A stretch of DNA of 16,819 nucleotides from a virus. The DNA lies in UHGV virus genome UHGV-0353285; one strand, written 5' to 3'. The stretch's first letter is position 1, and each line of letters starts with the position of its first letter. Position numbers and translations under genes: made by a program. Below are positions 1-16,233 of the stretch, one piece after another. The notes under the pieces were generated by a model. That model was not told the DNA's origin and ran no database searches. It saw only the letters and a program-made list of their open reading frames with translations.

Positions 1-2
1 TT

Positions 3-1574: not shown

Positions 1575-2884
1575 TGCCGTGGAACAATTTTCCGCACCTC
1601 GCCGCTAGGGCGTTCAATCAACCGCTTTTGCTGGAGCCCGCCTACGCGCGGGTATTTTTTTCTGCGCTGAGCGACCGGTTCGGTACCGGGCGACTGATTG
1701 ATACAGCGTCAGGAGAGGTAATGAACAGCGACGAAATGAACGCGCTCGCGATGGGGTGGGACAGCAGCGAGCGAACACGCCAGAAATCGTATCGCGTGGA
1801 GCGTGGTATAGCCGTTCTGCCGGTTACCGGGACGCTGGTTCATAAATTGGGTTATATCAATCCGGTCAGCGGGATGAGTGGTTACGACGGAATCGCAAAA
1901 CGCCTGCAGCAGGCGATTTCTGATCCCGATGTTAAGGGGATCCTGCTGGATATTGATTCCCCTGGCGGTGAGGTCGCCGGCGCGTTTGATACCGCTGATT
2001 TAATCGCCCGGGCGCGAGAGCAAAAACCGGTGTGGGCGCTGGCCAGCGATACGGCCTGCAGCGCCGCATATTTGCTGGCGTCAGCGTGTTCGCGCCGGCT
2101 GATAACGCAGACCGGCACGGTTGGTTCAATCGGTGTCCTGATGGCTCACCGCTGCGTCGAAAAGGCGCTGGAGATTGCCGGCGTTGACGTGACGCTGATT
2201 TACGCCGGCGCGCACAAAGTCGACGGGAACCCGTATTCCCAGCTGCCCGACGACGTTCGCGACGAATTCCAGCTGAGTATTAACAGCACACGCGAGCAGT
2301 TCGCGCAAAAAGTCTCGGATTATACCGGGCTGAAAAAATCCAGGGTGCTGGCCACAGAGGCCGCAGTATTTATCGGCGCGGACGCGATTAAATCTGGTCT
2401 CGCTGATCAACTCGTTAATTACGCGGACGCTATCGCAGTGATGGCCGACGCACTGAAACCAAAAACGGAGCGATTTATGCCAGGTACAACAGAAACCACG
2501 GCGGAGACCACGACCACAGAACAAACCGCGGCTACGACTACGGTCGCGCCGGTTGAGTCCAACGCGGAGCAGATTCGCGCGGACGCCGCATCGAGCGAAC
2601 TGGCACGCGTGATGGCCATCATCAACTGTCCCGAAGCTGTTGGGCGCGAGGCGCAGGCAAAAGCGCTCGCTGCCGTCCCCGGGATGACGGTCGGGCAGGC
2701 GCAGGCTGTCCTCGCGGCAGCACCGCAAACAGCGCAGGCGCGGACAGAAACGGCGCTCGATACACTCATGAGCACTGAATCACCGGAAACTATTCAGGAT
2801 GCCGGCAGCACCACGGCAACAGGAACAACCGCAAACGTCTCGATGCTGGTCGCGGCAGGGCGTTCAATTTTAGGGGATGAATAA
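1574..2884 (+). CDS. Head maturation protease / minor capsid protein C (S49 ClpP-like peptidase family)
   Basis: 436-aa ORF directly after the portal, with GGAGG Shine-Dalgarno upstream and ATG overlapping the portal stop. Lambda gpC-like blocks are present (GIAVLPV.GTL, GYDGI..RLQQA..DP.V.GILLDIDSPGG, KPVWALA, HKVDGNPYS.LPDDVR). The C-terminal third is Thr/Ala/Gln-rich, as in the scaffold portion of lambda C. Confidence 0.88.
   Translation: MPWNNFPHLAARAFNQPLLLEPAYARVFFSALSDRFGTGRLIDTASGEVMNSDEMNALAMGWDSSERTRQKSYRVERGIAVLPVTGTLVHKLGYINPVSGMSGYDGIAKRLQQAISDPDVKGILLDIDSPGGEVAGAFDTADLIARAREQKPVWALASDTACSAAYLLASACSRRLITQTGTVGSIGVLMAHRCVEKALEIAGVDVTLIYAGAHKVDGNPYSQLPDDVRDEFQLSINSTREQFAQKVSDYTGLKKSRVLATEAAVFIGADAIKSGLADQLVNYADAIAVMADALKPKTERFMPGTTETTAETTTTEQTAATTTVAPVESNAEQIRADAASSELARVMAIINCPEAVGREAQAKALAAVPGMTVGQAQAVLAAAPQTAQARTETALDTLMSTESPETIQDAGSTTATGTTANVSMLVAAGRSILGDE
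2477..2884 (+). CDS. Putative nested scaffolding protein (Nu3-like), from an in-frame internal start within the protease gene
   Basis: In lambda, Nu3 is translated in frame from the 3' third of gene C. Here in-frame ATGs at 2441 and 2477 would give ~135-147-aa products with the same C-terminus. This is an inference by analogy; no strong SD was seen. Confidence 0.4.
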   Translation: MPGTTETTAETTTTEQTAATTTVAPVESNAEQIRADAASSELARVMAIINCPEAVGREAQAKALAAVPGMTVGQAQAVLAAAPQTAQARTETALDTLMSTESPETIQDAGSTTATGTTANVSMLVAAGRSILGDE

Positions 2885-3213
2885 TGACCACAGAAACGTA
2901 TAGCCCGGATGATTTTATTCTGGGACCCGATCTTGTTGTGACGACCGTCGGTCATTTTCAGGGCGGGATCAACGTACCCCGGCTGACACCGATTATGCTC
3001 GACGCTACTGCCGGGACGTTTAAAGTCTGGGACGGCTCAATTGGTAAGGCGGTTGGTCTCACAGCCACAGCAGTTAATACAGGCTCCAGTTCTGCAGACT
3101 GCTCGTACTACAAATCAGGATCGTTTCGTTATACGGCGATTAACTGGGGTACGGTTACTGACGTCGCTAAACGCAAATCAGCGTTTGCTGGTACGCCAGT
3201 CAGCGTTGGCTGA
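2884..3213 (+). CDS. Head decoration protein (lambda gpD-like)
   Basis: 109-aa ORF between protease and major capsid genes. Motifs LTPIMLDAT...KVWDG...YYKSGSFRY...AFAGT resemble lambda gpD (110 aa). SD AGGGGA upstream; start overlaps the upstream stop (TAATG). Confidence 0.8.
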   Translation: MTTETYSPDDFILGPDLVVTTVGHFQGGINVPRLTPIMLDATAGTFKVWDGSIGKAVGLTATAVNTGSSSADCSYYKSGSFRYTAINWGTVTDVAKRKSAFAGTPVSVG

Positions 3214-3234
3214 TAGCAAAAAAAAACTCAAAAC

Positions 3235-3259
3235 AAGCCGCCTCCGGGCGGTTTTTTTA
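3235..3259 (+). terminator. Rho-independent terminator-like hairpin between decoration and major capsid genes
   Basis: Stem CCGCC (3238-3242), loop TCCG, stem GGCGG (3247-3251), followed by T7 (3252-3258) and preceded by an A-run (3218-3226). Likely partial or attenuating, since the capsid gene follows in the same operon. Confidence 0.55.
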
Positions 3260-3273
3260 TACAGGATATATAA

Positions 3274-4308
3274 ATGAGCGATTCGTTTACTACGTCAGAA
3301 CTGATTACCGCAACGCAGCAGGTATTTAAGTTCAATCCGTTGTTTTTAAAATTGTTTTTCCGTGAGACCTACACGTTTACGAGCGAAGAGGTTTTTCTGG
3401 ATAAAATCCCGGGCAAAGTCAATATGGCGGTATATTGCGCCCCGATGATCACCGGCAAAGTTGACCGCACTCGCGGCTATTCAACGAACCACTTTAAACC
3501 GGGTTACACGAAACCGAAACACACGATCAATCCGAATATGAGCATCAAGCGCGCCGCCGGTGAGCAAATTGGCCAGCCAGAAACGCCGGTCGAACGTCGT
3601 GCAAAAATCATCATGCAGAATTTGCTCGACGAGGAGCTCAGCATCAGCCAGCTCGAAGAGTTCCAGGCAGTGCAGGCGGTTCTGTACGGTAAATACACCG
3701 TTTCCGGCAGCAATATCGAGACCTATGAGATCGACATGAGCCGCAGCGCGACGAATAACGTCACTCAGTCCGGTTCGACCGCCTGGTCGACTCAGGACGC
3801 GGAAACGTATGACCCGAGCGACGATATTGAATCCTATGCAGACCTCGCCTCCGGTGCGGTTAACGTGATCATCATGGACGGTAAAGCCTGGAAGCAGCTT
3901 AAACGCTTTAAAAAATTCTGGACGGCACTGGATACGCGCCGCGGCTCAAACAGTCAGCTCGAAGTCGCGCTGAAAAACCTGGGCGATGTCGTTAGCTTTA
4001 AGGGCTATTACGGCGACACGGCGCTGTTCGTTTACAAGGGTCAATATATTGACCCGCTAATAGGCACTGAAACGCGTTATATGCCGGATAACACGATGAT
4101 CCTGGGCAACACAAAAAATCGCGGGCTCCGCACCTATGGCGCGATCCAGGACGAGGACGCGCTGAAAGAGGGTATCTGCGAAGCCACGCGCTATCCAAAA
4201 GTGTGGACGACGACCGGCGATCCGGCAGTGACGCAAACAATGACGCAATCCGCGCCAGCAATGGTCCTCACCGACGCTGATGCGTTCGTCGTCGTAAAAA
4301 TCGCGTAA
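3274..4308 (+). CDS. Major capsid protein (lambda gpE-like)
   Basis: 344-aa ORF. Strong resemblance to lambda E across the length (FKF.PLFL.LFFRE, PGYTKPKH, IIMQN..DEEL.I.Q.EE.QAV.AVL.GKYT, TYDP.DDIE.YA, DTRRGSNS.LE, RGLRTYG.IQD, RYPK.W.TTGDP). AGGA SD upstream. Confidence 0.92.
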   Translation: MSDSFTTSELITATQQVFKFNPLFLKLFFRETYTFTSEEVFLDKIPGKVNMAVYCAPMITGKVDRTRGYSTNHFKPGYTKPKHTINPNMSIKRAAGEQIGQPETPVERRAKIIMQNLLDEELSISQLEEFQAVQAVLYGKYTVSGSNIETYEIDMSRSATNNVTQSGSTAWSTQDAETYDPSDDIESYADLASGAVNVIIMDGKAWKQLKRFKKFWTALDTRRGSNSQLEVALKNLGDVVSFKGYYGDTALFVYKGQYIDPLIGTETRYMPDNTMILGNTKNRGLRTYGAIQDEDALKEGICEATRYPKVWTTTGDPAVTQTMTQSAPAMVLTDADAFVVVKIA

Positions 4309-4330
4309 GAGCCGAAGGCTCTTTTTTTTA
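4306..4330 (+). terminator. Rho-independent terminator-like hairpin after the major capsid gene
   Basis: Stem AGAGCC (4308-4313), loop GAA, stem GGCTCT (4317-4322), then a T-run (4322-4329). Overlaps the TAA stop of the capsid gene. Confidence 0.6.
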
Positions 4331-4340
4331 AGGAATTAAC

Positions 4341-4760
4341 ATGAGCACAAAAACAGAATTGCTGGCGCGCATTGACGATTTGAGCGCCCAGCTCGGTCGC
4401 GAATTACCGCGCAGCGGGACTATTGCTGAACTGGAATCAATCGTCGCCGGCGCTGAGTCAGAGCTCGATATTCTGAACGAGCAATCTGGTGACGCGGGAG
4501 GCATCGAGATCACGGTGAATGCTGCGCCCGGGACGGATAGCGATCTCGCTCAATCAATCGCGAGCGCTATCGTTTCACAGTCACAAGAACCGGAGCTCGC
4601 ACCGGCTACGCACCGCGTTAAGCTGCGAAACACGCTGGACGTTTATCACTACGTGAACGGGCGTCGCGTTCGCGAGATTGTTGCTGCTGGCCGGGAAATT
4701 GTTGTTGATTCACCGGAGGTTGCAGACCTCATCGCAGCTGATCACGTTTACGCGCTATGA
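4341..4760 (+). CDS. DNA packaging / head assembly protein, lambda FI-like
   Basis: 139-aa acidic ORF in the position of lambda FI. The N-terminus (MSTKTELLARIDDLSAQLGREL) resembles the start of lambda FI as I recall it. AAGGA SD upstream. Confidence 0.55.
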   Translation: MSTKTELLARIDDLSAQLGRELPRSGTIAELESIVAGAESELDILNEQSGDAGGIEITVNAAPGTDSDLAQSIASAIVSQSQEPELAPATHRVKLRNTLDVYHYVNGRRVREIVAAGREIVVDSPEVADLIAADHVYAL

Positions 4761-5137
4761 GCTACTACGATGACCTCCGGGCTGGCGACGAGGAGATGAT
4801 CCGTGAGTGGGGACGGCCCGTTAAATTACGCGGTAAAACCGACCCCATTATCGCTATTTTCAACGAGCCTTACGCGCGCGTTGACGTTCCTCACGCTGGT
4901 TTTATTACCGGTACAGTAACGAGCCTGACAGCGCTCTCAGACGACGTCGCTGGCGTTGTTGCGCGTGACGTTGTCCAGGTCCCAAAGCAGCGCAGTATCG
5001 CTGCTGACGGCTCTGTTACCTGGTCTGACTGGACCGATTACGTGGTTAAAGAGCCTCAACCGGATGGCATCGGTCTCACGAATATTTTTTTAGAGCCTCA
5101 CACGTCCAGCGAAAACAGCGAGTATTCAAAATACTAA
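4757..5137 (+). CDS. Putative head-tail joining (head completion) protein, FII-like by position
   Basis: 126-aa ORF with start overlapping the FI-like stop (ATGA). Assignment is by synteny with lambda FII and small size; sequence resemblance is not confidently recognised. Confidence 0.4.
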   Translation: MSYYDDLRAGDEEMIREWGRPVKLRGKTDPIIAIFNEPYARVDVPHAGFITGTVTSLTALSDDVAGVVARDVVQVPKQRSIAADGSVTWSDWTDYVVKEPQPDGIGLTNIFLEPHTSSENSEYSKY

Positions 5138-5157
5138 GTGGGACCGCGGTCCCACTT
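5136..5157. repeat. 22-bp perfect palindrome AAGTGGGACCG/CGGTCCCACTT
   Basis: Read directly: aagtgggaccgcggtcccactt, a perfect inverted repeat centred on a CCGCGG core. It overlaps the stop codon of the FII-like gene and has no downstream T-tract. Confidence 0.6.
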
Positions 5158-5168
5158 AAGGGGGAACC

Positions 5169-5849
5169 GTGGCCGATTTACGTAGTAACGCGCAGATGTT
5201 CGATATCGATGTTTCGGCGCTGGAGCAGCTCAGAGTCGAAATCAGCGCGACGCAACATCAGATGCTGATGGCATACAACAGAGCGCTGAACCGAACTGCA
5301 AAGTATATGCACCGAATTTCAGCAGGAATGATTTTGACTGCACTGGCAGCTAAAAATCATAAGGCCGTAAATAAACGAATCAAACCGTTCATTAAGCGCC
5401 GCAATTTTACAAAAGAAGGGGCAGGAGATCTGAGTAGCGTAAAACTCTGGTACGGCCTGAACGATTTCCGTGTATCTGAGCTAAAGGGGCGATTACAAAA
5501 TCCCAGGAAGCAGAAGCAGCCTCGCAATCCAGAGACCGGTCAATTTTTGAAAACAAAAAAAGGCGCTCGAGGGGCGGCTTTTACACCCAAAAGTGCAGGG
5601 CTGGCGATGATGAGTTGGCCAGATTCATTCGTAGCTAAGCGCTACGGTGCGAAAAGTGTCTGGATTCGGCTGGCTCGCGGAGGAATCGAAGAGGCTCGCG
5701 TACCTGTGCACGACGCGCTGGAGGATGCTATCGATGATTATATTTTTGAAAACATTGGCTCTGTTTTTATGGGCTTTTTTGAGAAAGATTTACGCGGTCG
5801 AGTGAAAGGTAATGTCCACGTAGACCCAAAAACAGGGAAACGATTATGA
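5169..5849 (+). CDS. Putative tail completion protein (lambda gpZ-like), basic
   Basis: 226-aa ORF with GTG start preceded by AGGGGGA. Lys/Arg-rich with loose resemblance to lambda gpZ and in the equivalent position after FII. The functional call is tentative. Confidence 0.4.
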   Translation: MADLRSNAQMFDIDVSALEQLRVEISATQHQMLMAYNRALNRTAKYMHRISAGMILTALAAKNHKAVNKRIKPFIKRRNFTKEGAGDLSSVKLWYGLNDFRVSELKGRLQNPRKQKQPRNPETGQFLKTKKGARGAAFTPKSAGLAMMSWPDSFVAKRYGAKSVWIRLARGGIEEARVPVHDALEDAIDDYIFENIGSVFMGFFEKDLRGRVKGNVHVDPKTGKRL

Positions 5850-6382
5850 GCGGGCTGGATGCATTTGACGAATATCTTGATCGCGTTAAAGGCGCGGTTT
5901 TACAAATACCGTTCATCAAAACATTCGGCATTTATCCAGAAATTCCGGCAGGATTTGAAACGCCAGCTCTGTTCCTGGAAATCAGCAACTGGTCACAGAG
6001 TGACGAAGCTGTTCCAGGCTCAATTCAGTCAGTCGAGCTGTCGTGTAATTTGTATTTGCTGCGTGAGTTTGCTGCAGATCAGTACGGACTGAAATCGCAG
6101 AATGCAGCGCTCTATATGACGAGCTGGATTGATGGGCGAATGTTCGGTCCCGGAACTAAACCGGCAAAATTCAGCGACGCGGAACCATGTGACTGGATTA
6201 AAAACGGGCAGTCAGTCGGTTCGCATTCAGTTCAGTGCGTGTCGTTCACGCAGGTTGTAGGCGTTGGTCCAGATATTTTCGATTATCCCTCACAGGGAAC
6301 CCTGAAAAATATATACGTCGGAATAGCGCCAGATATCGGCGCAGAACACGAGAGCGACTACTATGGCCCAATCGGACGATGA
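5846..6382 (+). CDS. Hypothetical virion morphogenesis protein (possible tail terminator/completion protein)
   Basis: 178-aa ORF with ATGA overlap to the upstream gene and AGGGA SD. It lies between head-completion genes and the baseplate genes. No confident family recognition. Confidence 0.3.
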   Translation: MSGLDAFDEYLDRVKGAVLQIPFIKTFGIYPEIPAGFETPALFLEISNWSQSDEAVPGSIQSVELSCNLYLLREFAADQYGLKSQNAALYMTSWIDGRMFGPGTKPAKFSDAEPCDWIKNGQSVGSHSVQCVSFTQVVGVGPDIFDYPSQGTLKNIYVGIAPDIGAEHESDYYGPIGR

Positions 6383-7265
6383 ATATGCTGCAGCGGAGAA
6401 CGCGCGCAGGCTGCGTGACGCAGTTAAACGAGGCACGATAGCTGCAGTTAAAATGAATCCTCCCCGCTGCCGAGTCTCATTTGGTGGCGAACACCAGTCA
6501 GGCTGGCTGCAGTGGTTTACTCACGCCACCTCAGAACGCGTCGACTGGAGCGCACCATCAGTGGGCGATCCCGTTACTGTTGTTTCTGAGGGTGGGGACA
6601 CGCGGAACGGCGTAGTTATGCTCGGGCTGCACATTGACAACAAAGCTCCGCCCAGTAATGACCCCCATGATCATGTCACTGCATACTGTGACGGGGCTAC
6701 GATGACGTATAACACAAAAAATCACACTCTGACATGGCAGGGCGTACCGGACGGCGTAGTAAAAATACTCGGTGAGTCTGAAATAGAAATATTCGGACGT
6801 GCAGACGTTACTATTAATAGCGAAAACGTTGTCAATATTCACGGTGGAAAATTAATTAACGCAGACGCTGACATTATTAATGTGACAGCAACAGACACAA
6901 TTAACGCACATGCTGATTTAGTGAACGTTATAGCAACGAGTTCTGTTAGTGTTACTGCTGCGAACAGAATATCGCTGACAGCTCAAACAATCAGTGCGTG
7001 GGCTCCGGGTGGGATAACACTAGCTGGTCCAACTCATATTACCGAGACATTAGTAGTAGATAAATTAGCGACATTCCGTAACGATATTTCTGTCACTGGA
7101 GATAACGGTGGAACAGGTAATATCACAACCCGCGGTAGTGTGTTAGCAGGGCAAGAGGTACGGGACCGACAAGGCACAATGAATGAGATGCGTATTACAT
7201 ATAACGGGCATACGCACATATGCCCTGACGGAGAAACAGAGAAACCAAATCAACCAATGGCGTAA
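6363..7265 (+). CDS. Baseplate central spike / assembly protein V (P2 gpV-like)
   Basis: 300-aa ORF. The N-terminal domain has the gpV-type signature (RCRV..GG...GWLQW..HA......W.APSVGD.V). The middle is a beta-helix-like repeat region (INADADIINVTATDTINAHADLVNVIATSSVSVTA). The C-terminus carries a His-rich apex (YNGHTHICPDG). Confidence 0.85.
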   Translation: MAQSDDEYAAAENARRLRDAVKRGTIAAVKMNPPRCRVSFGGEHQSGWLQWFTHATSERVDWSAPSVGDPVTVVSEGGDTRNGVVMLGLHIDNKAPPSNDPHDHVTAYCDGATMTYNTKNHTLTWQGVPDGVVKILGESEIEIFGRADVTINSENVVNIHGGKLINADADIINVTATDTINAHADLVNVIATSSVSVTAANRISLTAQTISAWAPGGITLAGPTHITETLVVDKLATFRNDISVTGDNGGTGNITTRGSVLAGQEVRDRQGTMNEMRITYNGHTHICPDGETEKPNQPMA

Positions 7266-7267
7266 AT

Positions 7268-7609
7268 ATGCTTGGAATGAACCGTGACACCGGTAAGCCT
7301 TTATCGGGGACTGATCACATTTGTCAGTCTATCGTTGATATTTTAACGACCCCGCTGGGAACCCGTGTAATGCTGCCGGAATATGGAAGCAAATTATTTG
7401 ACCTTGTTGATAATCCCACAGATCCATCGCTTGCTATGCGGATAATTATGGAAAGCGCTGGCGCAATAGCACGCTGGGAACCACGCGTCAGAATTGACAG
7501 AATAAATGTGTTAGCAGTGGATATCGGGAAAATAACAATATTAATTATCGCAACAGATATCGAAACACAACAGCGATTAGAGTTTAATAATATGGAGCTG
7601 ATATTTTGA
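7268..7609 (+). CDS. Baseplate wedge protein W (GPW/gp25 family)
   Basis: 113-aa ORF immediately after V. Motifs GMNR.TG, I.QSI.DIL.TP.G.RVM.P.YGS and WEPRV are typical of gpW/gp25 proteins. Confidence 0.85.
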   Translation: MLGMNRDTGKPLSGTDHICQSIVDILTTPLGTRVMLPEYGSKLFDLVDNPTDPSLAMRIIMESAGAIARWEPRVRIDRINVLAVDIGKITILIIATDIETQQRLEFNNMELIF

Positions 7610-8526
7610 TAACATCAACAGTTCAAAACTCGATAGTGAAAACTATTGATATGAGTCTGCTTCCGCCGCCAGCATTCGTTAAAACCCCGTTATTTTCAGA
7701 TGTTAAATCTAATCTACTGTCAGAGCTGCAGATATTATATCCACAATTTAACGCGCTCCTGGAGTCAGACCCAGCAGTTAAACTGCTGGAAATAGTTGCA
7801 TACAGAGAAATTATCATTACAGCCCGGGTAAATCAGGGGATGCTCGCTGTATTGCTCGCATTCGCAAAAAATAGCGATCTCGACCAGATTGGCGCTAATT
7901 TTGACTGCCTGCGGCTGTTGATAACGCCAGCTAATCCCGACTCAGTCCCCCCGACTGAAGCGGTTTACGAGAGTGACGACGAGTATCGTCATCGCATACA
8001 ACTATCATGGTACGCGCGGAATACTGCCGGCAGTACAAACGCGTATAACTATTTCGCGCTATCGAGTGATCCCGATGTTCTGTCAGCGCAGGCATACGGC
8101 CCGCCTGTGACTCAGCCAGGGTACGTCGATATGTACGTTTTGTCCCGGACAGGCGACGGTGTACCCCCGCAATCACTACTGAATACAGTGAATGCGGCCC
8201 TGTCTCCTGACGACACTCGGCCACTAACTGATTTCGTGACCGTAAAACCTGCGTCGAACCTGAATTACCGGGTTGAGGCCGTTATCGTAGCGGGGCTCGG
8301 TCCCGACCAGAACGTATTACTCAACGGCGCGCAGAGCGATCTTGAAGTCTACGTGACCACACAACATAAAATCGGGGCAACAGCAGCTCTGTCAGGAATT
8401 TACGACGCGATACATCGCGACGGCACTGAGCGTGTGATTCTGATATCACCGACAGAGGATGCGATCGCCGGCGTCGGACAGGCTCCACACTGCACAGAAA
8501 TCAAACTCAGCGTACAGATGGGGTGA
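7606..8526 (+). CDS. Baseplate protein J (P2 gpJ-like)
   Basis: 306-aa ORF following W with gpJ-like blocks (LLE..AYRE, IGAN...RL.ITPA, DDEYR.RIQ). The start is uncertain: TTG at 7606 overlapping the W stop, or ATG at 7651 (MSLLPPPAF). Confidence 0.85.
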   Translation: MITSTVQNSIVKTIDMSLLPPPAFVKTPLFSDVKSNLLSELQILYPQFNALLESDPAVKLLEIVAYREIIITARVNQGMLAVLLAFAKNSDLDQIGANFDCLRLLITPANPDSVPPTEAVYESDDEYRHRIQLSWYARNTAGSTNAYNYFALSSDPDVLSAQAYGPPVTQPGYVDMYVLSRTGDGVPPQSLLNTVNAALSPDDTRPLTDFVTVKPASNLNYRVEAVIVAGLGPDQNVLLNGAQSDLEVYVTTQHKIGATAALSGIYDAIHRDGTERVILISPTEDAIAGVGQAPHCTEIKLSVQMG

Positions 8527-9155
8527 CAATGACGAGCCAGAGTGTACTGCCTCCTAACGCAGTAACACCAGAAAGAGCGCTGGAAGCCGTTTTATCTCAT
8601 GTCGGCGATTTGCCTGGTGATATACGAATTATTAAAAATCCCGACCTGTGTCCCGCAAATTTGCTCCCATGGCTAGCGTGGGAATACGCGGTTACGTACT
8701 GGAATCCGGACTGGAGTGAGCGACAAAAACGCGAAATTATCAAAGCAGCCGCGTGGCAAAACAAACACCGCGGCACCCGTGGAGCTGTTGAACGCGCGTT
8801 ATTAACTGTCGGATTTAATAGCAAAATGCGCGAGTGGTTTGAAGCCACACCCAGGGACGACCCGTATACATTCGCAATTAAAATATATCTGCTAAAAAGT
8901 ATGGGGTTAGATTTAGAGCTATTGAATACATTTATTGCACAAATATTTGATGCAAAAAATTGTCGTTCATTATTAAAAGAAATAAATTTCGAAACTGGTG
9001 TTGATGGTGAGTTTTTTATAGCTGGTACACCTTACGCGAAAATAGGCGTAAATATACCGGCAGATGGTGATGGCGGCGTGAAATTAAATGGCGGATTATA
9101 TATATCAGGCTCACCAATTGTTAGTTTAAATGTGGAGATAGGGCCAAATGGCTGA
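8523..9155 (+). CDS. Baseplate/tail protein I (P2 gpI-like)
   Basis: 210-aa ORF with conserved N-terminal block (LLPWLAWEY.V..W...WSE..KR..I). Start is GTG at 8523 (overlapping the J stop) or ATG at 8529. The C-terminal third is markedly AT-rich. Confidence 0.82.
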   Translation: MTMTSQSVLPPNAVTPERALEAVLSHVGDLPGDIRIIKNPDLCPANLLPWLAWEYAVTYWNPDWSERQKREIIKAAAWQNKHRGTRGAVERALLTVGFNSKMREWFEATPRDDPYTFAIKIYLLKSMGLDLELLNTFIAQIFDAKNCRSLLKEINFETGVDGEFFIAGTPYAKIGVNIPADGDGGVKLNGGLYISGSPIVSLNVEIGPNG

Positions 9156-10065
9156 AAATAAAATTTACGCAGTACTGACAGACCGCGGCGCACAACTCGA
9201 AGCCGCTGCGCTGGCGTCAGGCGTGCCGGTGGTGCTGAACAAATTTGTTATCGGTGACGCGAACGGAAACGACGACGTAACACCGGATCCGGCGCGTACT
9301 GCATTAATTCACGAGACGTATCGCGGGGATATTAAATCGTCAGAAAATAGTGGTAACCAGGTTATCTTTACACTATACGTACCACCGGAAACCGGCGGCT
9401 ATACTATCCGTGAGGTGGGAATATTAACCGATAAAGGCGAACTGTACTCAGTTGCACGTTCACCGGATATTTTAAAACCTACGGACAGCAACGGCGCGCT
9501 GATTTCAATTACGTATAAATACACGCTCGCGGTGTCCAGCACGTCTACTGTTAACGTAGTTATTGATAACAGTAGTGGAATGAGTCAGGCCGATGCTGAT
9601 AAGCGATATTTGCAGATAAGAAAAAATTTATCTGAAATTAAAGACAAAGGCGCGGCGGCGCAAAAAACGGCACGGGAAAATATCGGCGTTAATCTTGATG
9701 ATTATTACACCAAAAAGGACGTAGACAATTTAATTGATGATAGCGATGACCTCGCACCGGTGGTGCCTGCGTTTGCAGCTGTCGGCTCAGTTGTTTATGC
9801 AGGATTTGGATTTAGTAACGAGACTGTTATGCACTATAAACCCGGGGATACTATTGCAGGTTCATTGATTTTTCCTGCGTATATATATAGAAAAAATGCG
9901 CAGTTAATTAGCGACGTTATTATTAGTATAGGATTTTCAGCAGAATCCCTGCCTGGCTTGTGGGCGCTCTCAGGGTATATGCCGTCGAGTTCCGAACCGA
10001 CAGACGGTAATGCCGAAGCTATTTTTACAGCGAGTTTTGCAACAAATTTCATTAGAGTAGCCTAA
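9148..10065 (+). CDS. Tail fibre protein (P2 gpH-like N-terminal baseplate-attachment domain, divergent C-terminus)
   Basis: 305-aa ORF with start overlapping the gpI stop. The N-terminal ~130 aa (KF.IGDANGNDD..PDP..TALIHE.YRG...S......V.FT...PPE.GGYTIREVGI.TDKGELY) resembles the conserved fibre N-terminus. The C-terminal half is AT-rich and unrecognised. Confidence 0.75.
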   Translation: MAENKIYAVLTDRGAQLEAAALASGVPVVLNKFVIGDANGNDDVTPDPARTALIHETYRGDIKSSENSGNQVIFTLYVPPETGGYTIREVGILTDKGELYSVARSPDILKPTDSNGALISITYKYTLAVSSTSTVNVVIDNSSGMSQADADKRYLQIRKNLSEIKDKGAAAQKTARENIGVNLDDYYTKKDVDNLIDDSDDLAPVVPAFAAVGSVVYAGFGFSNETVMHYKPGDTIAGSLIFPAYIYRKNAQLISDVIISIGFSAESLPGLWALSGYMPSSSEPTDGNAEAIFTASFATNFIRVA

Positions 10066-10070
10066 ATAAA

Positions 10071-10304
10071 ATGTTTAAAGATGATGATTTTTCAAATATA
10101 AAATTACCGCGCTATTCTAGCACATCAGGCAATAGTATTGATGTTAAATGTGATATCAGAGGTATCGGTAGTGATATTTTATTTACTGCATCTAAAACCG
10201 ATTCCACATTATATGGAAGGAATTTATACGAGCGAGCTTTGGCCGGTGAATTTGGTGATGTCGCTGAATATGTGGCTCCAATTATAATCGAATCAGGAGA
10301 GTAA
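10071..10304 (+). CDS. Hypothetical small protein (possible tail fibre assembly chaperone or accessory gene)
   Basis: 77-aa AT-rich ORF in the slot where P2-like tails carry the fibre assembly gene. No clear SD and no recognisable family. Confidence 0.3.
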   Translation: MFKDDDFSNIKLPRYSSTSGNSIDVKCDIRGIGSDILFTASKTDSTLYGRNLYERALAGEFGDVAEYVAPIIIESGE

Positions 10305-10309
10305 AAGAA

Positions 10310-10651
10310 ATGAGCACTAATTTTTTACATGGGCCTCGCACGCTCGAATACGACGACGGCACAAAAGAGATCAACACAGTCGATATTTCAGTTATCGGGA
10401 TTGTTGGTACTGCACCGGATGTTGGGCTAGGGGAGAGGGCATCATTAACGTGGGGATCACCGCTGGCAAATAATGTAGTCACCTTTTTCCCGGTCTATTA
10501 TGGGGATTACGGAAATAAATTTGCAGTTGAAATTATTAAGAAGGGTATTTCTGGAATTAAATACGGATATAGCACACTTCCAGACGGAACAATAAAATTA
10601 ACGCTCGGGACCGACAGCACAACAAGCCGGAACGGCTGGCGCAAGACGTAG
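10310..10651 (+). CDS. Small ORF carrying a tail sheath N-terminal motif (sheath 5' fragment or split sheath N-terminal part)
   Basis: 113-aa ORF with strong SD (AGGAGA, 10292-10297). The first ~37 residues (MSTNFLHGPRTLEYDDGTKEINTVDISVIGIVGTAPD) match the conserved N-terminal strand of contractile sheath proteins. The stop TAG (10649-10651) overlaps the GTG of the downstream sheath ORF. Confidence 0.5.
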   Translation: MSTNFLHGPRTLEYDDGTKEINTVDISVIGIVGTAPDVGLGERASLTWGSPLANNVVTFFPVYYGDYGNKFAVEIIKKGISGIKYGYSTLPDGTIKLTLGTDSTTSRNGWRKT

Positions 10652-11802
10652 TGACTCACGGTGAAGGGCGAACCGCTGAGGATTGTATTTGTGTAGGCAT
10701 TGACGAGGACAGTAAAAATGACGGAATTGTTTATCAGATGCCCGTCACGAGCCTGACGGGCGGTTCTGACGCTCCATTTCCAGTCAACATACCCACACTA
10801 ATTGCAGGTAGTCAGAAAAAAGCGGCGCTCCTGGGTGCAGCAGGCACTCTCCCCGCAGCCATCACTGATATTTTAAATCAGACAGATGCGCTAATTGTTG
10901 TTGTTCGCGTAGACGAAAACACAGACGCGACAAAAGAGCGTGAGAACGTAATCAACGGAATTAACGTTTTGTTAACATCGGGACAAATAAACCAGGTGAC
11001 TCCACGAATTTTGATTGCACCTGATTACAGCGCTAATGACGACGTCGCTGCCGCGCTGGAGGTAGTCACAAATAAATTACGTGGAGTCGGCTATATTGAT
11101 TCTCCACGCACGGCATCGCCCGCAGACGTCGTTAACCGCCGCCATAAATATAGCGCGCGCATGGAAATACTACGCCCGCGTGTGTTTTCCACGGGCGATC
11201 TCAGTGATCTGTCGCGTCCATATTCAGCTATCGCCGCTGGTTTACGAGCCAGAATTGACAACGAAAAAGGGTTTTGGTGGAGCAAATCTAATCAAAATAT
11301 TTATGGAATAACAGGGCTTGAGCAGGTTGATGATTTCATTATTGGCGAGACAAACTGCACGGCGAACCTGCTGAACGCTAGTCAGGTAAGCACCATCATT
11401 CGCTATGATGGATTCCGACATTGGGGTAACTATCTGTGCAGCCTGGATCCGCAGTGGTCGTTTGAATGCGTTCGTCGGACAGCTGACGTAATTGAAGATT
11501 CTATAGCCCGGGCAATGATGACAGATTTTATTGATCGCCCGATAGACCTGCATCTCGGAACAGACGTTGTCGAGTCGATAAACGCATATCTGCACAAATT
11601 AGAGGAGCAGGGTGCGATTAACGGAGGGCGTGCGTGGTTAGACGGTGAGTTGAATACAAAAGAAAGTCTGGCCGCTGGTAATCTTTATATTAATGTTGAT
11701 TTTGGTCCGAAATCTCCGGCACAAACAATTACGTTAATGTACCGCATTAATAATGACTATACAGTTGAAGCGCTGGCCTCCCTTTTTAAAGAAACAGCCT
11801 GA
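10651..11802 (+). CDS. Tail sheath protein (P2 FI-like)
   Basis: 383-aa ORF with sheath-like blocks throughout (FPVNIPTLI.GSQKKAA, ALIVVVRVDE, PRILIAPDYS, LRARID.EKGFWWS.SNQ.I.GITG, C.ANLLNA..V.TIIRYDGFR.WGN, LYINVDFGP). GTG start with weak SD; the frame is open upstream only back to 10573. Confidence 0.88.
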   Translation: MTHGEGRTAEDCICVGIDEDSKNDGIVYQMPVTSLTGGSDAPFPVNIPTLIAGSQKKAALLGAAGTLPAAITDILNQTDALIVVVRVDENTDATKERENVINGINVLLTSGQINQVTPRILIAPDYSANDDVAAALEVVTNKLRGVGYIDSPRTASPADVVNRRHKYSARMEILRPRVFSTGDLSDLSRPYSAIAAGLRARIDNEKGFWWSKSNQNIYGITGLEQVDDFIIGETNCTANLLNASQVSTIIRYDGFRHWGNYLCSLDPQWSFECVRRTADVIEDSIARAMMTDFIDRPIDLHLGTDVVESINAYLHKLEEQGAINGGRAWLDGELNTKESLAAGNLYINVDFGPKSPAQTITLMYRINNDYTVEALASLFKETA

Positions 11803-11819
11803 TAATTCGGAGAGTAAAT

Positions 11820-12332
11820 ATGTCAGATAGCAACGCTTACCGCGCGTTTGCGCTATTCGTGCAGGGTGAACGGGTTTTAAATTGTACTGAATATACTCCA
11901 GTCGATATGAAAATAATCGAAGACGAGTTTAAAACAGGCGCGATGGATACAGCCATCACCTTGGATGGTGGTATGGAGAAAATGTCAGCAAGTTTTAAAG
12001 TTTCAGGTTCTGATTCTGGTGTTATGAGCTATTTCGGGTTAATACCGGGAGTCAAGACGCGGTTTGAAATTCGTAGTGCGTACACAGACTCATATGGAAT
12101 AAATTTTGAGCGTATTGATACCTACGAGGGACTTATTACAGCAATCACTGATGACGCTCAGGGGACTGATTCAAAATCGTCAGTGGGGCAATCAGTAACG
12201 ATTGCGCCGAGCTATTATAAACGAGTTCAAAACGGACGAATTATTTACGAAATTCATCCTGCAAAAATGAAGCGCGTTATTAACGGTGTTGATGTTCTTG
12301 CGGGCGTCGCTCGAATCCTTCATGTATATTAA
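11820..12332 (+). CDS. Tail tube protein (P2 FII-like)
   Basis: 170-aa ORF directly after the sheath with GGAGAG SD. Size and motifs (GGMEKMSASFKVSG, SYYKR, INGVD.LAG) fit the tail tube family. Confidence 0.85.
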   Translation: MSDSNAYRAFALFVQGERVLNCTEYTPVDMKIIEDEFKTGAMDTAITLDGGMEKMSASFKVSGSDSGVMSYFGLIPGVKTRFEIRSAYTDSYGINFERIDTYEGLITAITDDAQGTDSKSSVGQSVTIAPSYYKRVQNGRIIYEIHPAKMKRVINGVDVLAGVARILHVY

Positions 12333-12344
12333 AAGGCAAATAAA

Positions 12345-12626
12345 ATGGAATCATTATTAGACAGTATGACTATTACGCTCTCTCGCCCGTTTATTATTAA
12401 AGGCGAGAGCTGCGATACAATTACTATTCGCGAACCAAAATTACGCGATCGTATTATGTTCAGTAACGATAAAAGTGGTCTTGAAGAGCGGACAGCGACA
12501 ATGCTGGCACGCTTGGCAAATCTGGAGCGAGAGGATTTATATGCACTGCCTGCGTGCGATTACGATCAAATGGAGGCCGCGTTTAACGAACTGGTAAAGC
12601 CCCCGAAAGACCGACATCAGATATAG
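12345..12626 (+). CDS. Tail assembly chaperone E (P2 gpE-like)
   Basis: 93-aa ORF between the tube and tape measure genes, the conserved position of the tail chaperone. The N-terminus (ITLSRPFIIKGE..DTITIREPKLRD) resembles gpE-family proteins. Confidence 0.75.
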   Translation: MESLLDSMTITLSRPFIIKGESCDTITIREPKLRDRIMFSNDKSGLEERTATMLARLANLEREDLYALPACDYDQMEAAFNELVKPPKDRHQI

Positions 12627-12757
12627 TTATTCTGATTCCGTTTATTGCGAAAAAACTTGCTATCCCGCCCGATACGCAAATGGACCTGCCGTATCGGGTT
12701 TTTAATTTCTATGTAAACGAGGTCATGAAAACCGATGGCTATTTCTCAAAACTTTAA
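12345..12757 (+). CDS. Putative E' (E+E') product made by -1 ribosomal frameshift near the 3' end of E
   Basis: The -1 frame is open from 12485 to a TAA at 12755-12757 and would extend E by ~50 aa (…PFIAKKLAIPPDTQMDLPYRVFNFYVNEVMKTDGYFSKL), ending 23 nt inside the tape measure gene. No canonical X_XXY_YYZ heptamer; nearest candidates are GGTAAAG (12593-12599) and the C5 run 12600-12604. Confidence 0.45.
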
Positions 12758-14375: not shown

Positions 14376-14800
14376 CAATGAGTGATGCAATAAACGGTGC
14401 TGAGGATATCATGCTCGGCCTGGGTGATTTCATTTTTGCTATATCAACAGTAGCGTACAACAAACTGCAACGTAGTGACGCCTGGCGCTGGGCTCAGCAA
14501 ACACGATTCGGGAAAAACGACGCGTTGCAGATAACCGGACGACCGAACCCCACAATCACTATCGATGGAAAGATAAACGCTTTATTTCTTGACGGGTGCG
14601 GCGTCGGCCTGTTGACAGATTTGCGTGCGCTTGGGAACACGGGAGAACCCCAGCAGCTAGTGCTGGGGACCGGGGAGGTGAAAGGGTACTGGGTGCTGCG
14701 AGAACTAACTGAAACGCAAAACAGCTTTTTGATGGGCGGAACCCCAAAATCGCAGGACTTTTCACTCACGCTCGAATATTATGGAGCTTCGCTAGATTAA
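14372..14800 (+). CDS. Tail protein U (P2 gpU-like)
   Basis: 142-aa ORF overlapping the tape measure stop (GTGA). gpU-like motifs (LGLG.F.F, Y..LQR...WRWA.Q.R.G) and the conserved position after the tape measure. Start is GTG 14372 or ATG 14378. Confidence 0.82.
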   Translation: MTMSDAINGAEDIMLGLGDFIFAISTVAYNKLQRSDAWRWAQQTRFGKNDALQITGRPNPTITIDGKINALFLDGCGVGLLTDLRALGNTGEPQQLVLGTGEVKGYWVLRELTETQNSFLMGGTPKSQDFSLTLEYYGASLD

Positions 14801-14973
14801 TATAAAATCAAGCGCTACCAGAGCACTTAACAAGTATAAAAATAATAAAAAAAACTACGAACATAAATGTAAAACAACCTGATGGTATTTTTTTTGACGC
14901 CGAAATACTAATACCTCTCCGACTACTAAAATTAATTCTCATTATGAAATCCTTTTAATTAATGGGGCCCCAA

Positions 14974-15186
14974 ATGATTACATACACTACACGGGACGGT
15001 GACCGTCTCGATCAGATCTGCCTTGCTGTCTACGGGAGAACAGCAAAAACGACAGAAACCGTGTTATATCAGGTTTTAAATTACGGCGTAACGGATATGT
15101 GTGCCGTGTTTCGTGCAGGAGAAAAAATTGTTTTACCAGAAATCGACCCCGAACCGGTTAAAAAAGAAACGCAATTATGGGATTGA
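14974..15186 (+). CDS. Tail protein X (P2 gpX-like, LysM-type)
   Basis: The frame is open from ATG 14962, but ATG 14974 (MITYTTRDGDRLDQIC..YGRT...ETVL) has the better G-rich SD and matches the gpX N-terminus. About 70 aa, ending ...QLWD, typical of gpX. Confidence 0.8.
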   Translation: MITYTTRDGDRLDQICLAVYGRTAKTTETVLYQVLNYGVTDMCAVFRAGEKIVLPEIDPEPVKKETQLWD

Positions 15187-15189
15187 TGA

Positions 15190-16233
15190 ATGAGTGATTA
15201 CGTAAATACTGGCGTGGAAGCATGGAAGCCCAATTTTTATATATCTGCTGATAATGAAAACATCACGGATAAAATAAGAAAAGGTTTGATCAATATCACG
15301 CTCACAGATTATGGCGGTTCGAGTAAACAGACAGACGAATTACGCGTAGCAATCGTTTCTGAAACTCTGAAAATTCCGGCCCGTGGCGTGAAGATCAGTG
15401 TCGGACTCGGTTTCGGTAATCAGATAATTGATAAGGGTATATACATCGTCGACGGTGCGAGCAGTGGCGGTGAACCTCGGGTAGTTGATTTCACAGCAAA
15501 AGCGGCTCCGATGAACGCGTCAAAAGGCTCTCCGACAGTTCAGAGCAAAAAAACTCGCTCCTGGAGCGACGTCACTGTCAGCAATATCGTTGCAACAATA
15601 GCGAGCGATAACGGGCTAAAACCACGTGTATCAAAGCGGTTTGCAGACAATATTATCACGCAACTCGATCAAGTCGGCGAGTCAGATATGCACCTGATGT
15701 CGAGACTAGCAACACGATTCGATGCGGTGAGTAAACCCGCGGGAGGGTACTGGATATTCCTGCCGCGCGGCGCGGGCGAATCTGTTAGCGGAGCGCCGCT
15801 TCAGCACTACACGCTCACGCGTCGTGATAACTCCAGCTGGGGTTATTCACGAAACGGACAAAGTGGCGATAGTGGTAGCGGTGGCGAAAATCCGGAACCG
15901 ACGTATCTGATTAAATATCACGACACAGCAACTGGGCAGATCAAAGAATTGCGGACAGGTAGTGGCGGCGATCCTGTCATTGAATGGCCGGCAGTTGAGC
16001 CGTCGCTCGACGCAGCGAAAGAAGCTGCACCAGGGCTCAAGGGCGGTGCAGCTAAAAAAGAGTTCTCTATGACGTACACGACGCCAGCGACGCTCGATTT
16101 AGTGTCGCTGACAGCAGAATGCAAAGTCACAACTCAAGGATTCGGGACCGAGGAGGACCGGGACTGGACTATCAACACGCTGAGCCTGACGCTTGCTGAA
16201 AACGGCTTTTCGGTTCGACTGTCTCTGGAGTAA
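15190..16233 (+). CDS. Tail protein D (P2 gpD / late control gene D family)
   Basis: 347-aa ORF immediately after X (stop/start TGATGAATG), in the conserved U-X-D arrangement of P2-like and R-pyocin tail clusters. Size and sequence are gpD-like. Confidence 0.82.
   Translation: MSDYVNTGVEAWKPNFYISADNENITDKIRKGLINITLTDYGGSSKQTDELRVAIVSETLKIPARGVKISVGLGFGNQIIDKGIYIVDGASSGGEPRVVDFTAKAAPMNASKGSPTVQSKKTRSWSDVTVSNIVATIASDNGLKPRVSKRFADNIITQLDQVGESDMHLMSRLATRFDAVSKPAGGYWIFLPRGAGESVSGAPLQHYTLTRRDNSSWGYSRNGQSGDSGSGGENPEPTYLIKYHDTATGQIKELRTGSGGDPVIEWPAVEPSLDAAKEAAPGLKGGAAKKEFSMTYTTPATLDLVSLTAECKVTTQGFGTEEDRDWTINTLSLTLAENGFSVRLSLE

Follow-up and report, generated by a model that had tools for sequence, protein, structure and literature searches.

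Mosaic genes encode the tail fibres of P2, Mu, P1, lambda and the T-even phages, and their exchange reportedly takes place at conserved junction motifs (Haggard-Ljungquist et al. 1992; Sandmeier 1994). In T2-type phages, gp38 contributes to receptor recognition. The P2 operon runs V-W-J-I-H-G, with a fibre (gpH) of 669 aa and a cognate accessory protein, gpG, of the Caudo_TAP type (PF02413), as are lambda Tfa and Mu U. Another kind of accessory protein has been described in Alteromonas phages, where models of DUF4376 chaperones resemble intramolecular chaperones and have three beta-strands at the N-terminus paired with the head of the fibre (PMC10579305).

The DNA analyzed here (the window; 16,819 nt, all features below being on its + strand) is an E. 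coli prophage with head genes of the lambda type, in which it differs from P2, and a contractile tail of the P2 type, the order V-W-J-I-fibre-accessory gene being common to both. The E. coli prophages E24377A, SE11, E62 and C41 and several GenBank "phages" (vB_EcoM-720R5 and others) belong to the same family; they share its gene order, and where the flanks align their backbones are ~85-93% identical to the window at the nucleotide level. The distal domain of the fibre and the accessory gene vary by cassette type. A literature search showed that the four GenBank "phages" with this backbone are uncharacterised prophages identified in clinical isolates. Another locus, L010 (20.9 kb), is 100% identical to the window over the compared stretch 7606-12700.

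Unlike these E. coli prophages, in which the tail sheath gene is intact, the window carries a sheath gene (10310-11802) that is split near 10625 into ORFs of 113 and 383 aa. The gene is 1493 nt long, compared with 1494-1506 nt in relatives with an intact copy, and the alignment near 10625 (ACAACAA-GCC in the window, ACAACAACGCC in the relatives) places a 1-nt deletion there, a state also present in L009-L013. Programmed frameshifting was considered and rejected, as the ORF of the relatives is intact with one extra C and no slippery heptamer is visible at the site. The deletion probably renders the prophage defective.

The fibre ORF (9148-10065) encodes 305 aa, of which the first 143 (9148-9576) form the baseplate-attachment domain. 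Residues 4-143 match the tail-collar N-terminal domain PF12571 (4.6e-32, 111.5 bits against a cut-off of 23), and the domain aligns with P2 gpH aa 28-151 at 34% identity, with no significant alignment to gpH past its residue 151. Among six fibres of the family, residues 1-143 hardly vary, and at least four unrelated C-termini come after them. Between the constant and variable parts lies a helical linker (aa 144-186, 9577-9705) with the motif KNLSEIK...AQ..AREN(I/L)G, which is conserved in all six family fibres, across every cassette type of the family, and also matches aa 80-110 of the Mu tail fibre protein S (PDB 5yvq); AF2 places a helix at aa 147-179, albeit within a poor model (pLDDT 31). 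The earlier note had called the fibre unusually short. This is true relative to P2 gpH only; family fibres are 305, 317, 374, 382 and 394 aa long, so that 305 aa is a normal length for this prophage family.

To map the break points of the variable part, the window was compared with a small number of loci by blastn and by sliding identity. Homology to the window ends at 9639 in L004 and L005 or at 9708 in L003, that is, within or at the end of the linker, and resumes at 10297-10309, from where that of L003 and L004 runs to 10420 at 92-93% identity through the conserved 5' end of the sheath gene (10310-10420). That the fibre C-terminus is a horizontally exchanged, putative receptor-binding region, as the earlier note had proposed, is thus borne out, since backbones that are otherwise ~85-93% identical lose similarity and regain it at these points. 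The proposed right-hand limit at 10065 needs to be moved, as the exchanged segment (9640-10297) continues past the fibre gene to include an ORF of 77 aa (orf77, 10071-10304). The accessory gene also differs by cassette type, being orf77 in the window type, an ORF of 129 aa in L005, a Caudo_TAP Tfa in L004 (5.4e-17 to PF02413) and a fused module in L003. On the basis of these alignments, the distal domain and orf77 constitute one cassette (~9640/9708 to 10297), of which at least four unrelated versions are carried by near-identical prophages. Relative to the same-type loci L001 and L002, the sequence is most variable at 9826-10185, a core that comprises the distal half of the fibre domain and the N-terminal half of orf77; here identity falls to 0.48-0.67 at the fibre end and 0.63-0.75 in the first half of orf77, compared with ~0.9 in the flanks.

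Cassette types were counted in 5,426 complete RefSeq E. coli genomes. The backbone was present in 482 of these and the L005-type cassette in 428, while 15 genomes carried a cassette related to that of the window (69-74% nucleotide identity), six the E24377A type and one the L004 type with its Caudo_TAP Tfa. No match to the window cassette above 74% nucleotide identity was found in this set.

Taken together, these results make it probable that the fibre is modular and that its tip is exchanged by recombination. The exchange would proceed by homologous recombination, with the conserved linker motif, in which the left junctions fall, as the left arm and the conserved 3' end of orf77 together with the 5' end of the sheath gene as the right arm. 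Two dedicated mechanisms of fibre variation were rejected. For an invertible tail-fibre segment of the Mu G, P1 C or e14 P type there are no inverted repeats in 8400-10800 beyond a sole pair with 14-nt arms of 86% complementarity, and no invertase or resolvase domain occurs among the genes of L010. A diversity-generating retroelement would call for a template/variable repeat pair and a reverse transcriptase, but direct repeats in 8400-10800 do not exceed 19 nt and no reverse-transcriptase domain occurs among the genes of L010. Repeats of either orientation in 8400-10800 were confined to 14-19-nt pairs at chance level, in agreement with the earlier note, which had seen no invertible-segment repeats, invertase or reverse transcriptase.

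An alternative to exchange is that the differences in the distal domain arose in place, by rapid diversifying selection on a receptor-binding surface. Consistent with this possibility, the same-type alleles (window, L001, L002 and L014) can be aligned end to end, with the framework motifs VYAGF, VMHYKPGD and ATNF.R conserved and variable sequence between them, and the most variable block is sharply confined to 9826-10185. However, the cassettes of L003, L004 and L005 cannot be aligned with that of the window and differ from it in length and in accessory gene, and so cannot be the product of point mutation. Synonymous differences among same-type alleles are raised as well (0.37-0.53 in the distal domain, 0.26-0.31 in the N-terminal domain), which suggests older divergence or exchange and not only positive selection, and the window domain is as far from the E. 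coli same-type alleles of L001 and L002 (58-65% amino acid identity) as it is from L006 (62%). We therefore consider diversification in place improbable as the source of these differences and retain exchange by recombination as the explanation.

The distal domain (aa ~187-305, 9706-10065) is the putative receptor-binding part of the fibre and is unrelated to the corresponding part of L003, L004 or L005. No Pfam, NCBIfam or PDB match was obtained for the last ~115 residues, and the description of the fibre C-terminus as unrecognisable holds to that extent. In an exhaustive phmmer search of 1.84 billion cluster representatives only one protein, P0004, carried the domain, a second (P0005) being a SHIRT-repeat protein. 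A word-indexed protein search with the domain returned three proteins, all of them aligned mainly via the linker, and the same kind of search with a profile of four distal-domain sequences returned no match; two peptide patterns likewise found no relative among the GTDB species-representative genomes. The domain is carried by seven IMG/VR loci, and the exact fibre protein is present on 228 contigs of a larger collection. Among the carriers, L006 has the same domain type on a far more divergent backbone (gpI 73%, fibre N-terminal domain 59% and distal domain 62% identical), and in L014 a 93% allele of the domain accompanies a sheath insert and an N-terminal fibre extension that are both different. 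These results suggest that the fibre ends in a compact domain of an uncharacterised family.

Structure prediction of the whole fibre from five sequences gave an unusable model (pLDDT 31, pTM 0.23), and because of this the distal domain is taken as the part that would bind the receptor from its position only. A SHIRT domain (PF18655) was rejected as an assignment, since aa 185-305 gave no Pfam hit at E <= 1. Pairwise similarity of the distal domain to the SHIRT repeats of P0005 is 27%; the phmmer score of P0005 is a sum over seven repeats, the fibre is not hit by the Pfam SHIRT model, and P0005 is an unverified lead.

Composition had been the starting point of the earlier note, which regarded the N-terminal parts as typical and the C-terminal parts of both gpI and the fibre as strongly AT-rich. 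For the fibre, the N-terminal domain is indeed typical (GC 0.485, 48th percentile), but its C-terminal half is only mildly AT-rich (GC 0.434 for 9706-10062, 20th percentile; 0.421 for 9607-10062, 12th percentile), as are the conserved tube gene (0.425) and gpW (0.421). A second AT trough, outside the coordinates proposed previously, coincides with orf77 (10071-10304; GC 0.355, GC3 0.23, 2.6th percentile). Local GC and divergence showed no significant correlation (r = 0.03-0.15), and a high AT content does not mark exchanged sequence at this locus.

The 3' third of the gpI gene, in comparison, is as AT-rich as had been claimed. GC at 8868-9152 is 0.344 and GC3 0.22, where the window mean GC is 0.496, which puts the patch at the 0.5th percentile of all 285-nt windows; in its core (8868-9050) GC is 0.30 and GC3 0.18. 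This segment is nevertheless neither unrecognisable nor swapped in. The gpI gene (8523-9155) lies between gpJ and the fibre, as in P2, and encodes 210 aa from a GTG at 8523, the relatives being annotated from an ATG at 8529 (208 aa). The protein matches Tail_P2_I (PF09684) over aa 9-148 (1.6e-37, 128.9 bits against a cut-off of 20.6) and TIGR01634 (104.8 bits against 30.05), the match to PHROG 48 spans aa 1-199, and aa 3-171 align with aa 1-166 of P2 gpI (34% identity, E 2e-31, BLASTP) with the AT-rich segment colinear. The homology thus extends along the whole length of P2 gpI, to which the window protein adds a C-terminal extension of ~23 aa. Sliding identity to L001 and L002 over 8866-9045 is 91-97%, gpI and the fibre N-terminal domain are 97-100% identical to those of the same two loci at the amino acid level, and the patch lies inside unbroken blastn alignments of five of five relatives, whichever fibre cassette they carry. 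Even in the distant relative L006 it is 66% identical at the amino acid level, compared with 73% for the gpI N-terminus, so that the C-terminus is conserved together with the N-terminus across relatives, which for gpI is an outcome that the earlier note had itself named as refuting its proposal. The AT-rich end is therefore ordinary conserved gpI that lies outside the cassette; the patch is probably either an old homologous one from a relative of lower GC or the product of local constraint.

A related possibility is that selection on the DNA itself, and not ancestry, accounts for the AT-rich patches (the gpI 3' end and orf77), which might serve as an internal promoter of the fibre operon or in H-NS silencing, to name two examples. 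GC3 in the gpI patch is extreme (0.05-0.25, compared with 0.40 in L006 and 0.45-0.60 in P2) though the protein is conserved, and L006 has a trough at the same position of gpI, both of which would fit this explanation. That trough is, however, far shallower than in the window and absent from P2, and synonymous differences still occur in the patch (0.14 relative to L001 and L002, 0.45 relative to L006). Scanning 8500-10700 for promoters and terminators revealed no enrichment, with 4 promoter-like sites where 5.8 +/- 2.1 were expected and none on the + strand upstream of the fibre gene, which leaves the internal-promoter idea unsupported. DNA-level selection is accordingly an account to which we give little credence, and the old patch or local constraint named above is the preferred reading of gpI.

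The product of orf77 is related to phage tail fibre assembly proteins. Its N-terminus matches PHROG 1795 and 1141, the tblastn hits, among them PhiR5_1 and P-Eib ORF-191 (E 6e-6), are phage genes annotated as "tail fiber assembly", and it aligns with aa 1-70 of the PhiR5_1 Tfa (31-32% identity), whose DUF4376 region is aa 72-182. There was no hit to the alpha-helical body of DUF4376 (PF14301) and none to Caudo_TAP even at E <= 1. The last ~65 aa of the E24377A-type fibre are also 38% identical to the protein, and it can be noted that this module exists on its own, in an extended form and as part of a fibre. An AF2 model of modest confidence (pLDDT 62) shows three strands followed by helices, and a Foldseek search of PDB with this model gave nothing below E = 1. 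We conclude that orf77 is a stand-alone homologue of the N-terminal module of DUF4376-type chaperones. It would copy their beta-sheet region and may bind the fibre head via its three predicted beta-strands, as a cognate chaperone or cap, with the same module fused to the fibre C-terminus in fibres of the E24377A type. The chaperone role is an extrapolation from partial homology, as the DUF4376 body and the Caudo_TAP domain are both absent.

Whether orf77 might instead be a functionless, truncated remnant of a full-length DUF4376-type assembly gene was also considered. It covers just the first ~70 residues of a 192-aa homologue, and it lies in a prophage that is already decaying, as the sheath frameshift indicates. 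On the other hand, an intact ORF of 77-83 aa follows the fibre gene in every same-type locus whose ORFs were examined, including the distant L006-L008 (79 aa, 48% identical) and prophages with an intact sheath gene; the sheath gene starts 6 nt past the orf77 stop, which leaves no room for a lost 3' part; and the same module, at about equal length, ends the E24377A-type fibre. A remnant is thus very unlikely, and a stand-alone module remains the preferred assignment. Alleles of orf77 vary at aa 1-36 and are nearly invariant at aa 37-77. A bolder proposal, which we put forward as speculation and hold to be rather doubtful, is that orf77 is a minimal stand-alone cap that keeps just the three-stranded fibre-binding sheet of the DUF4376 type and stays on the fibre tip, where it would pair with an undescribed, possibly SHIRT-like receptor-binding domain of ~115 aa; its variable aa 1-36 and the distal half of the receptor-binding domain would evolve in concert, and aa 1-36 would aid receptor recognition in the manner of T2-type gp38, and the E24377A-type fusion would be the covalent form.

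Lastly, the view of the earlier note, in which a single AT-rich host-range cassette brought in both the C-terminal third of gpI and the C-terminal half of the fibre, can be given almost no weight: both regions are below the window mean in GC and L006 shows poor conservation of the final ~34 aa of gpI (30% amino acid identity), but the gpI patch is conserved in L001 and L002, unbroken in all five relatives and alignable with P2 gpI, the constant fibre N-terminal domain (429 nt, GC 0.485) stands between the two regions, and GC is uncorrelated with divergence. In this prophage family, exchanged host-range modules are thus poorly predicted by local AT-richness, and it is break-point mapping against relatives that finds them. 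The cassette has usable boundaries, the linker motif marking its left end and the orf77/sheath junction its right end, and these could help in designing fibre swaps for engineered phages or tailocins. In addition, the analysis flags a rare, uncharacterised, putative receptor-binding domain together with its 77-aa accessory module. Given the frameshifted sheath gene, the cassette of the window is probably a silent reservoir and not a working host-range determinant. The practical value of these observations is modest, and the understanding of tail-fibre evolution is unchanged by them.

In comparison with the described systems, the locus is an ordinary mosaic with a swappable host-recognition cassette of a well-known kind. 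Relative to P2, the 305-aa fibre is less than half the length of gpH and resembles it in the N-terminal domain only, the accessory protein is not a Caudo_TAP protein like gpG, and the sheath gene comes directly after the accessory gene, without the intervening terminator or the fun(Z) gene. Unlike Mu-type mosaic fibre systems, the window has no invertible segment, invertase or inverted repeats, and outside the linker motif its distal domain bears no relation to Mu S or S'. The motif itself (NLSEIK..GA.AQ.TARENL), which Mu S has as well, sits precisely at the point where the cassette types cease to be homologous, and, as in the mosaic fibre genes of P2, Mu and the other phages named above, the C-terminal part of the fibre and the downstream accessory gene are exchanged together. 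As for the DUF4376-type chaperones (Alteromonas V22 gp27 and A5 gp9, lambdoid PhiR5_1), orf77 is without their alpha-helical DUF4376 body and their beta-hairpin "tentacle"; it likewise lies directly downstream of the fibre gene, and the AF2 model gives it three beta-strands, like the fibre-head-binding strands modelled for the V22 and A5 proteins. The logic of P2, in which a constant N-terminus is followed by a variable C-terminus and a cognate accessory gene downstream, is thus found in the window as well.

The earlier note had read the C-terminal third of gpI and the C-terminal half of the tail fibre as one AT-rich, exchanged host-range cassette; our analysis partly confirmed the observation and partly supported the interpretation, which is right for the fibre tip and wrong for gpI. 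Every long ORF of the window lies on the + strand, with a lambda-type head module (portal, S49 protease, decoration protein, major capsid E, FI and head-tail joining protein) followed by a P2-type contractile-tail module consisting of gpV (6363-7265), gpW (7268-7609), gpJ (7606-8526), gpI (8523-9155), the fibre (9148-10065), a 77-aa ORF termed orf77 (10071-10304), the sheath (10310-11802), the tube (11820-12332) and then gpE, tape measure, gpU, gpX and gpD. The gene assignments come from domain and family matches of the window ORFs and from precomputed Pfam hits of a 20.9-kb locus (L010) that shows 100% identity to the window across the compared stretch, 7606-12700. Of 5,426 complete E. coli genomes, 482 carry this backbone in the chromosome as a prophage, with relatives ~85-93% identical to the window at the nucleotide level in aligned flanks. 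The exact fibre protein is recorded, under the name 'phage tail protein [Escherichia coli / Enterobacteriaceae]', on 228 contigs, and in five loci that carry it (L009-L013) the genes adjoining the prophage have Pfam domains of yecA, tyrP and ferritin type. Between the two modules, a perfect 11+11-nt palindrome (AAGTGGGACCGCGGTCCCACTT, 5136-5157) starts on the final two bases of the head-tail joining gene's stop codon, stops short of the first tail-module ORF and is kept in 4 of 5 relatives; it may form a hairpin that serves in termination, attenuation or RNA stability.

The break points were sharp when the window was compared by blastn with five E. coli prophage relatives: homology ends at 9639 (fibre aa ~164) for L004 and L005 and at 9708 (aa ~187) for L003 (E24377A type), and picks up again at 10297-10309, where orf77 ends and the sheath gene begins. 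Alignment of the family's fibre proteins showed near-invariant residues 1-143 followed by unrelated C-termini, and the proposed exchange of the fibre C-terminus is thus borne out. Each cassette type brings its own accessory gene, a 77-83-aa ORF in the window type, a 129-aa ORF in the L005 type and a 192-aa Caudo_TAP Tfa in the L004 type, while the E24377A type has no separate gene and carries the module fused to its fibre. Among the 5,426 genomes the L005-type cassette was found in 428, a window-related cassette in 15 (13 E62-like, 74% nt; 2 C41-like, 69% nt), the E24377A type in 6 and the full-length L004 type in 1. The fibre had also been called unusually short, which is valid only against P2, where gpH has 669 aa (gpI and gpG have 176 and 175 aa); fibres of this prophage family total 305, 317, 374, 382 or 394 aa. 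As the note had stated, no inverted repeats were found in a repeat search around the fibre, and no invertase or reverse transcriptase among the gene domains of L010.

The window's type of distal domain is also present on the far more divergent backbone of a distant metagenomic relative (L006; 62% identity), and a further locus (L014) joins a 93% allele of it to a sheath insert and a fibre N-terminal extension that are both different; these two loci show that the distal domain assorts independently. Alleles of the same type diverge mostly in 9826-10185, the distal half of the fibre domain and first half of orf77, where synonymous differences are also raised, and positive selection alone is therefore not the explanation. 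Two fibre N-terminal variants exist in the family at the gpI/fibre overlap (window 9148-9180 and the L001 and L014 equivalents), MAENKIYAVL or the 9-aa longer MAKLKSNLK..ASQVYAVL, and they assort independently of distal-domain type.

For gpI, neither the exchange nor the supposed lack of recognisable sequence held. The Pfam Tail_P2_I profile spans aa 9-148 and PHROG 48 aa 1-199, and residues 3-171 are colinear with P2 gpI (34% identity, E 2e-31), so that the AT-rich stretch, starting at ~aa 116, falls inside this alignment; the window protein extends past P2 gpI by ~23 residues at the extreme C-terminus only. The patch at 8866-9045 is 91-97% identical to the two relatives with the window's cassette type (L001, L002), equal to or above its flanks, and gpI aligned without a break in all five relatives fetched, independent of the fibre cassette carried. 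Even in L006 the patch is conserved along with the N-terminus (66% and 73% aa identity), and the AT trough sits at the same position. Joint conservation of the two parts among relatives was an outcome that the note had named as refuting its reading, and gpI shows it. GC3 of the patch is 0.05-0.25 in the window, 0.40 in L006 and 0.45-0.60 in P2; our preferred guess is that this homologous patch was taken up long ago from a relative of lower GC, and an internal promoter as the cause of the AT patch found no support.

Against a mean window GC of 0.496, the strong AT-richness of the gpI 3' part is real (8868-9152, GC 0.344, GC3 0.22; core 8868-9050, GC 0.30, GC3 0.18; both at the 0.5th percentile of same-length windows). 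The fibre N-domain (9148-9576; GC 0.485, GC3 0.48) lies at the 48th percentile, and the fibre C-terminus, also described as strongly AT-rich, is only mildly low (9706-10062, GC 0.434, GC3 0.37, 20th percentile; 9607-10062, GC 0.421, GC3 0.36, 12th percentile), not below the conserved tube (0.425) or gpW (0.421). The second true trough is orf77 (10071-10301; GC 0.355, GC3 0.23, 2.6th percentile), outside the region originally named. Tail genes range over GC 0.42-0.51, compared with 0.52-0.59 in the first six head-side genes, and local GC was no guide to divergence (r = 0.03-0.15, not significant). AT-rich dips are spread across the window, with troughs of GC 0.36-0.40 in conserved core genes, e.g., at the gpW/gpJ junction (7351-7800) and the gpX/gpD 5' region (14701-15450).

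The sheath gene measures 1,493 nt in the window and 1,494-1,506 nt in relatives; one C is absent near 10625 (ACAACAA-GCC vs ACAACAACGCC in intact relatives), leaving ORFs of 113 and 383 aa, and the identical defect recurs in the five independent loci with the exact window fibre. An IS21-family element (IstB and rve transposase) occupies 605-2574 of L009 in the portal/protease region, and L011 has lost its head genes, with lambdoid Q, holin and lysis genes in their place (1-6738). Given a sheath defect common to five loci and further head-gene damage, the window lineage probably carries a defective prophage, whose cassette probably serves as a reservoir and not as a working determinant. The sheath gene also contains a second exchanged block (10420-10800), with unrelated sequence in L002, L003, L004, L005 and L014; this block assorts independently of the fibre cassette and is probably a surface-exposed insertion domain.

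The distal ~115 aa of the fibre matched nothing in Pfam, NCBIfam or PDB, and phmmer, run exhaustively against 1.84 billion cluster representatives, returned two proteins only, another fibre (P0004) and a 1,868-aa S-layer-type surface protein (P0005), each of whose seven SHIRT repeats is ~27% identical to the fibre at aa ~219-298 (9800-10040). Because the fibre gives no hit to the Pfam SHIRT model, we keep this likeness as a lead only. The orf77 product is homologous to the N-terminal ~70 residues of phage proteins annotated 'tail fiber assembly', is 47% identical to the accessory ORF of the L005 cassette, and resembles the C-terminal ~65 residues of the E24377A-type fibre (38% identity, E 2e-10); in the E24377A/SE11 cassette the 382-aa fibre itself ends in an orf77-like module, fused in frame (L003 5440-5694). 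In the PhiR5_1 assembly protein the ~70 residues precede a DUF4376 domain, and its gene follows a side tail-fibre gene. DUF4376 proteins are experimentally supported tail-fibre chaperones of Alteromonas phages V22 and A5; in published models three N-terminal beta-strands pair with the head of the fibre, and the alpha-helical body is similar to intramolecular chaperones (PMC10579305). In its AF2 model (pLDDT 62) orf77 forms three strands (aa 7-41) and then helices; a fold search with this model against PDB gave no match. From these homologies, the model and the chaperone analogy, we infer that orf77 could be the fibre-binding module alone, acting as a cognate chaperone or cap.

The left junction falls within a helical linker bearing KNLSEIK..G..AQ..AREN(I/L)G, a motif kept in all cassette types. 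Conserved motifs of this kind are said to have been proposed, by Haggard-Ljungquist in 1992 and Sandmeier in 1994, as cross-over points in mosaic fibre genes. The window linker motif is matched by aa 80-110 of the Mu tail fibre protein S (PDB 5yvq). The exchange is a textbook case of a mosaic tail-fibre cassette, and the distal domain and its free-or-fused 77-aa module are uncharacterised members of this kind.
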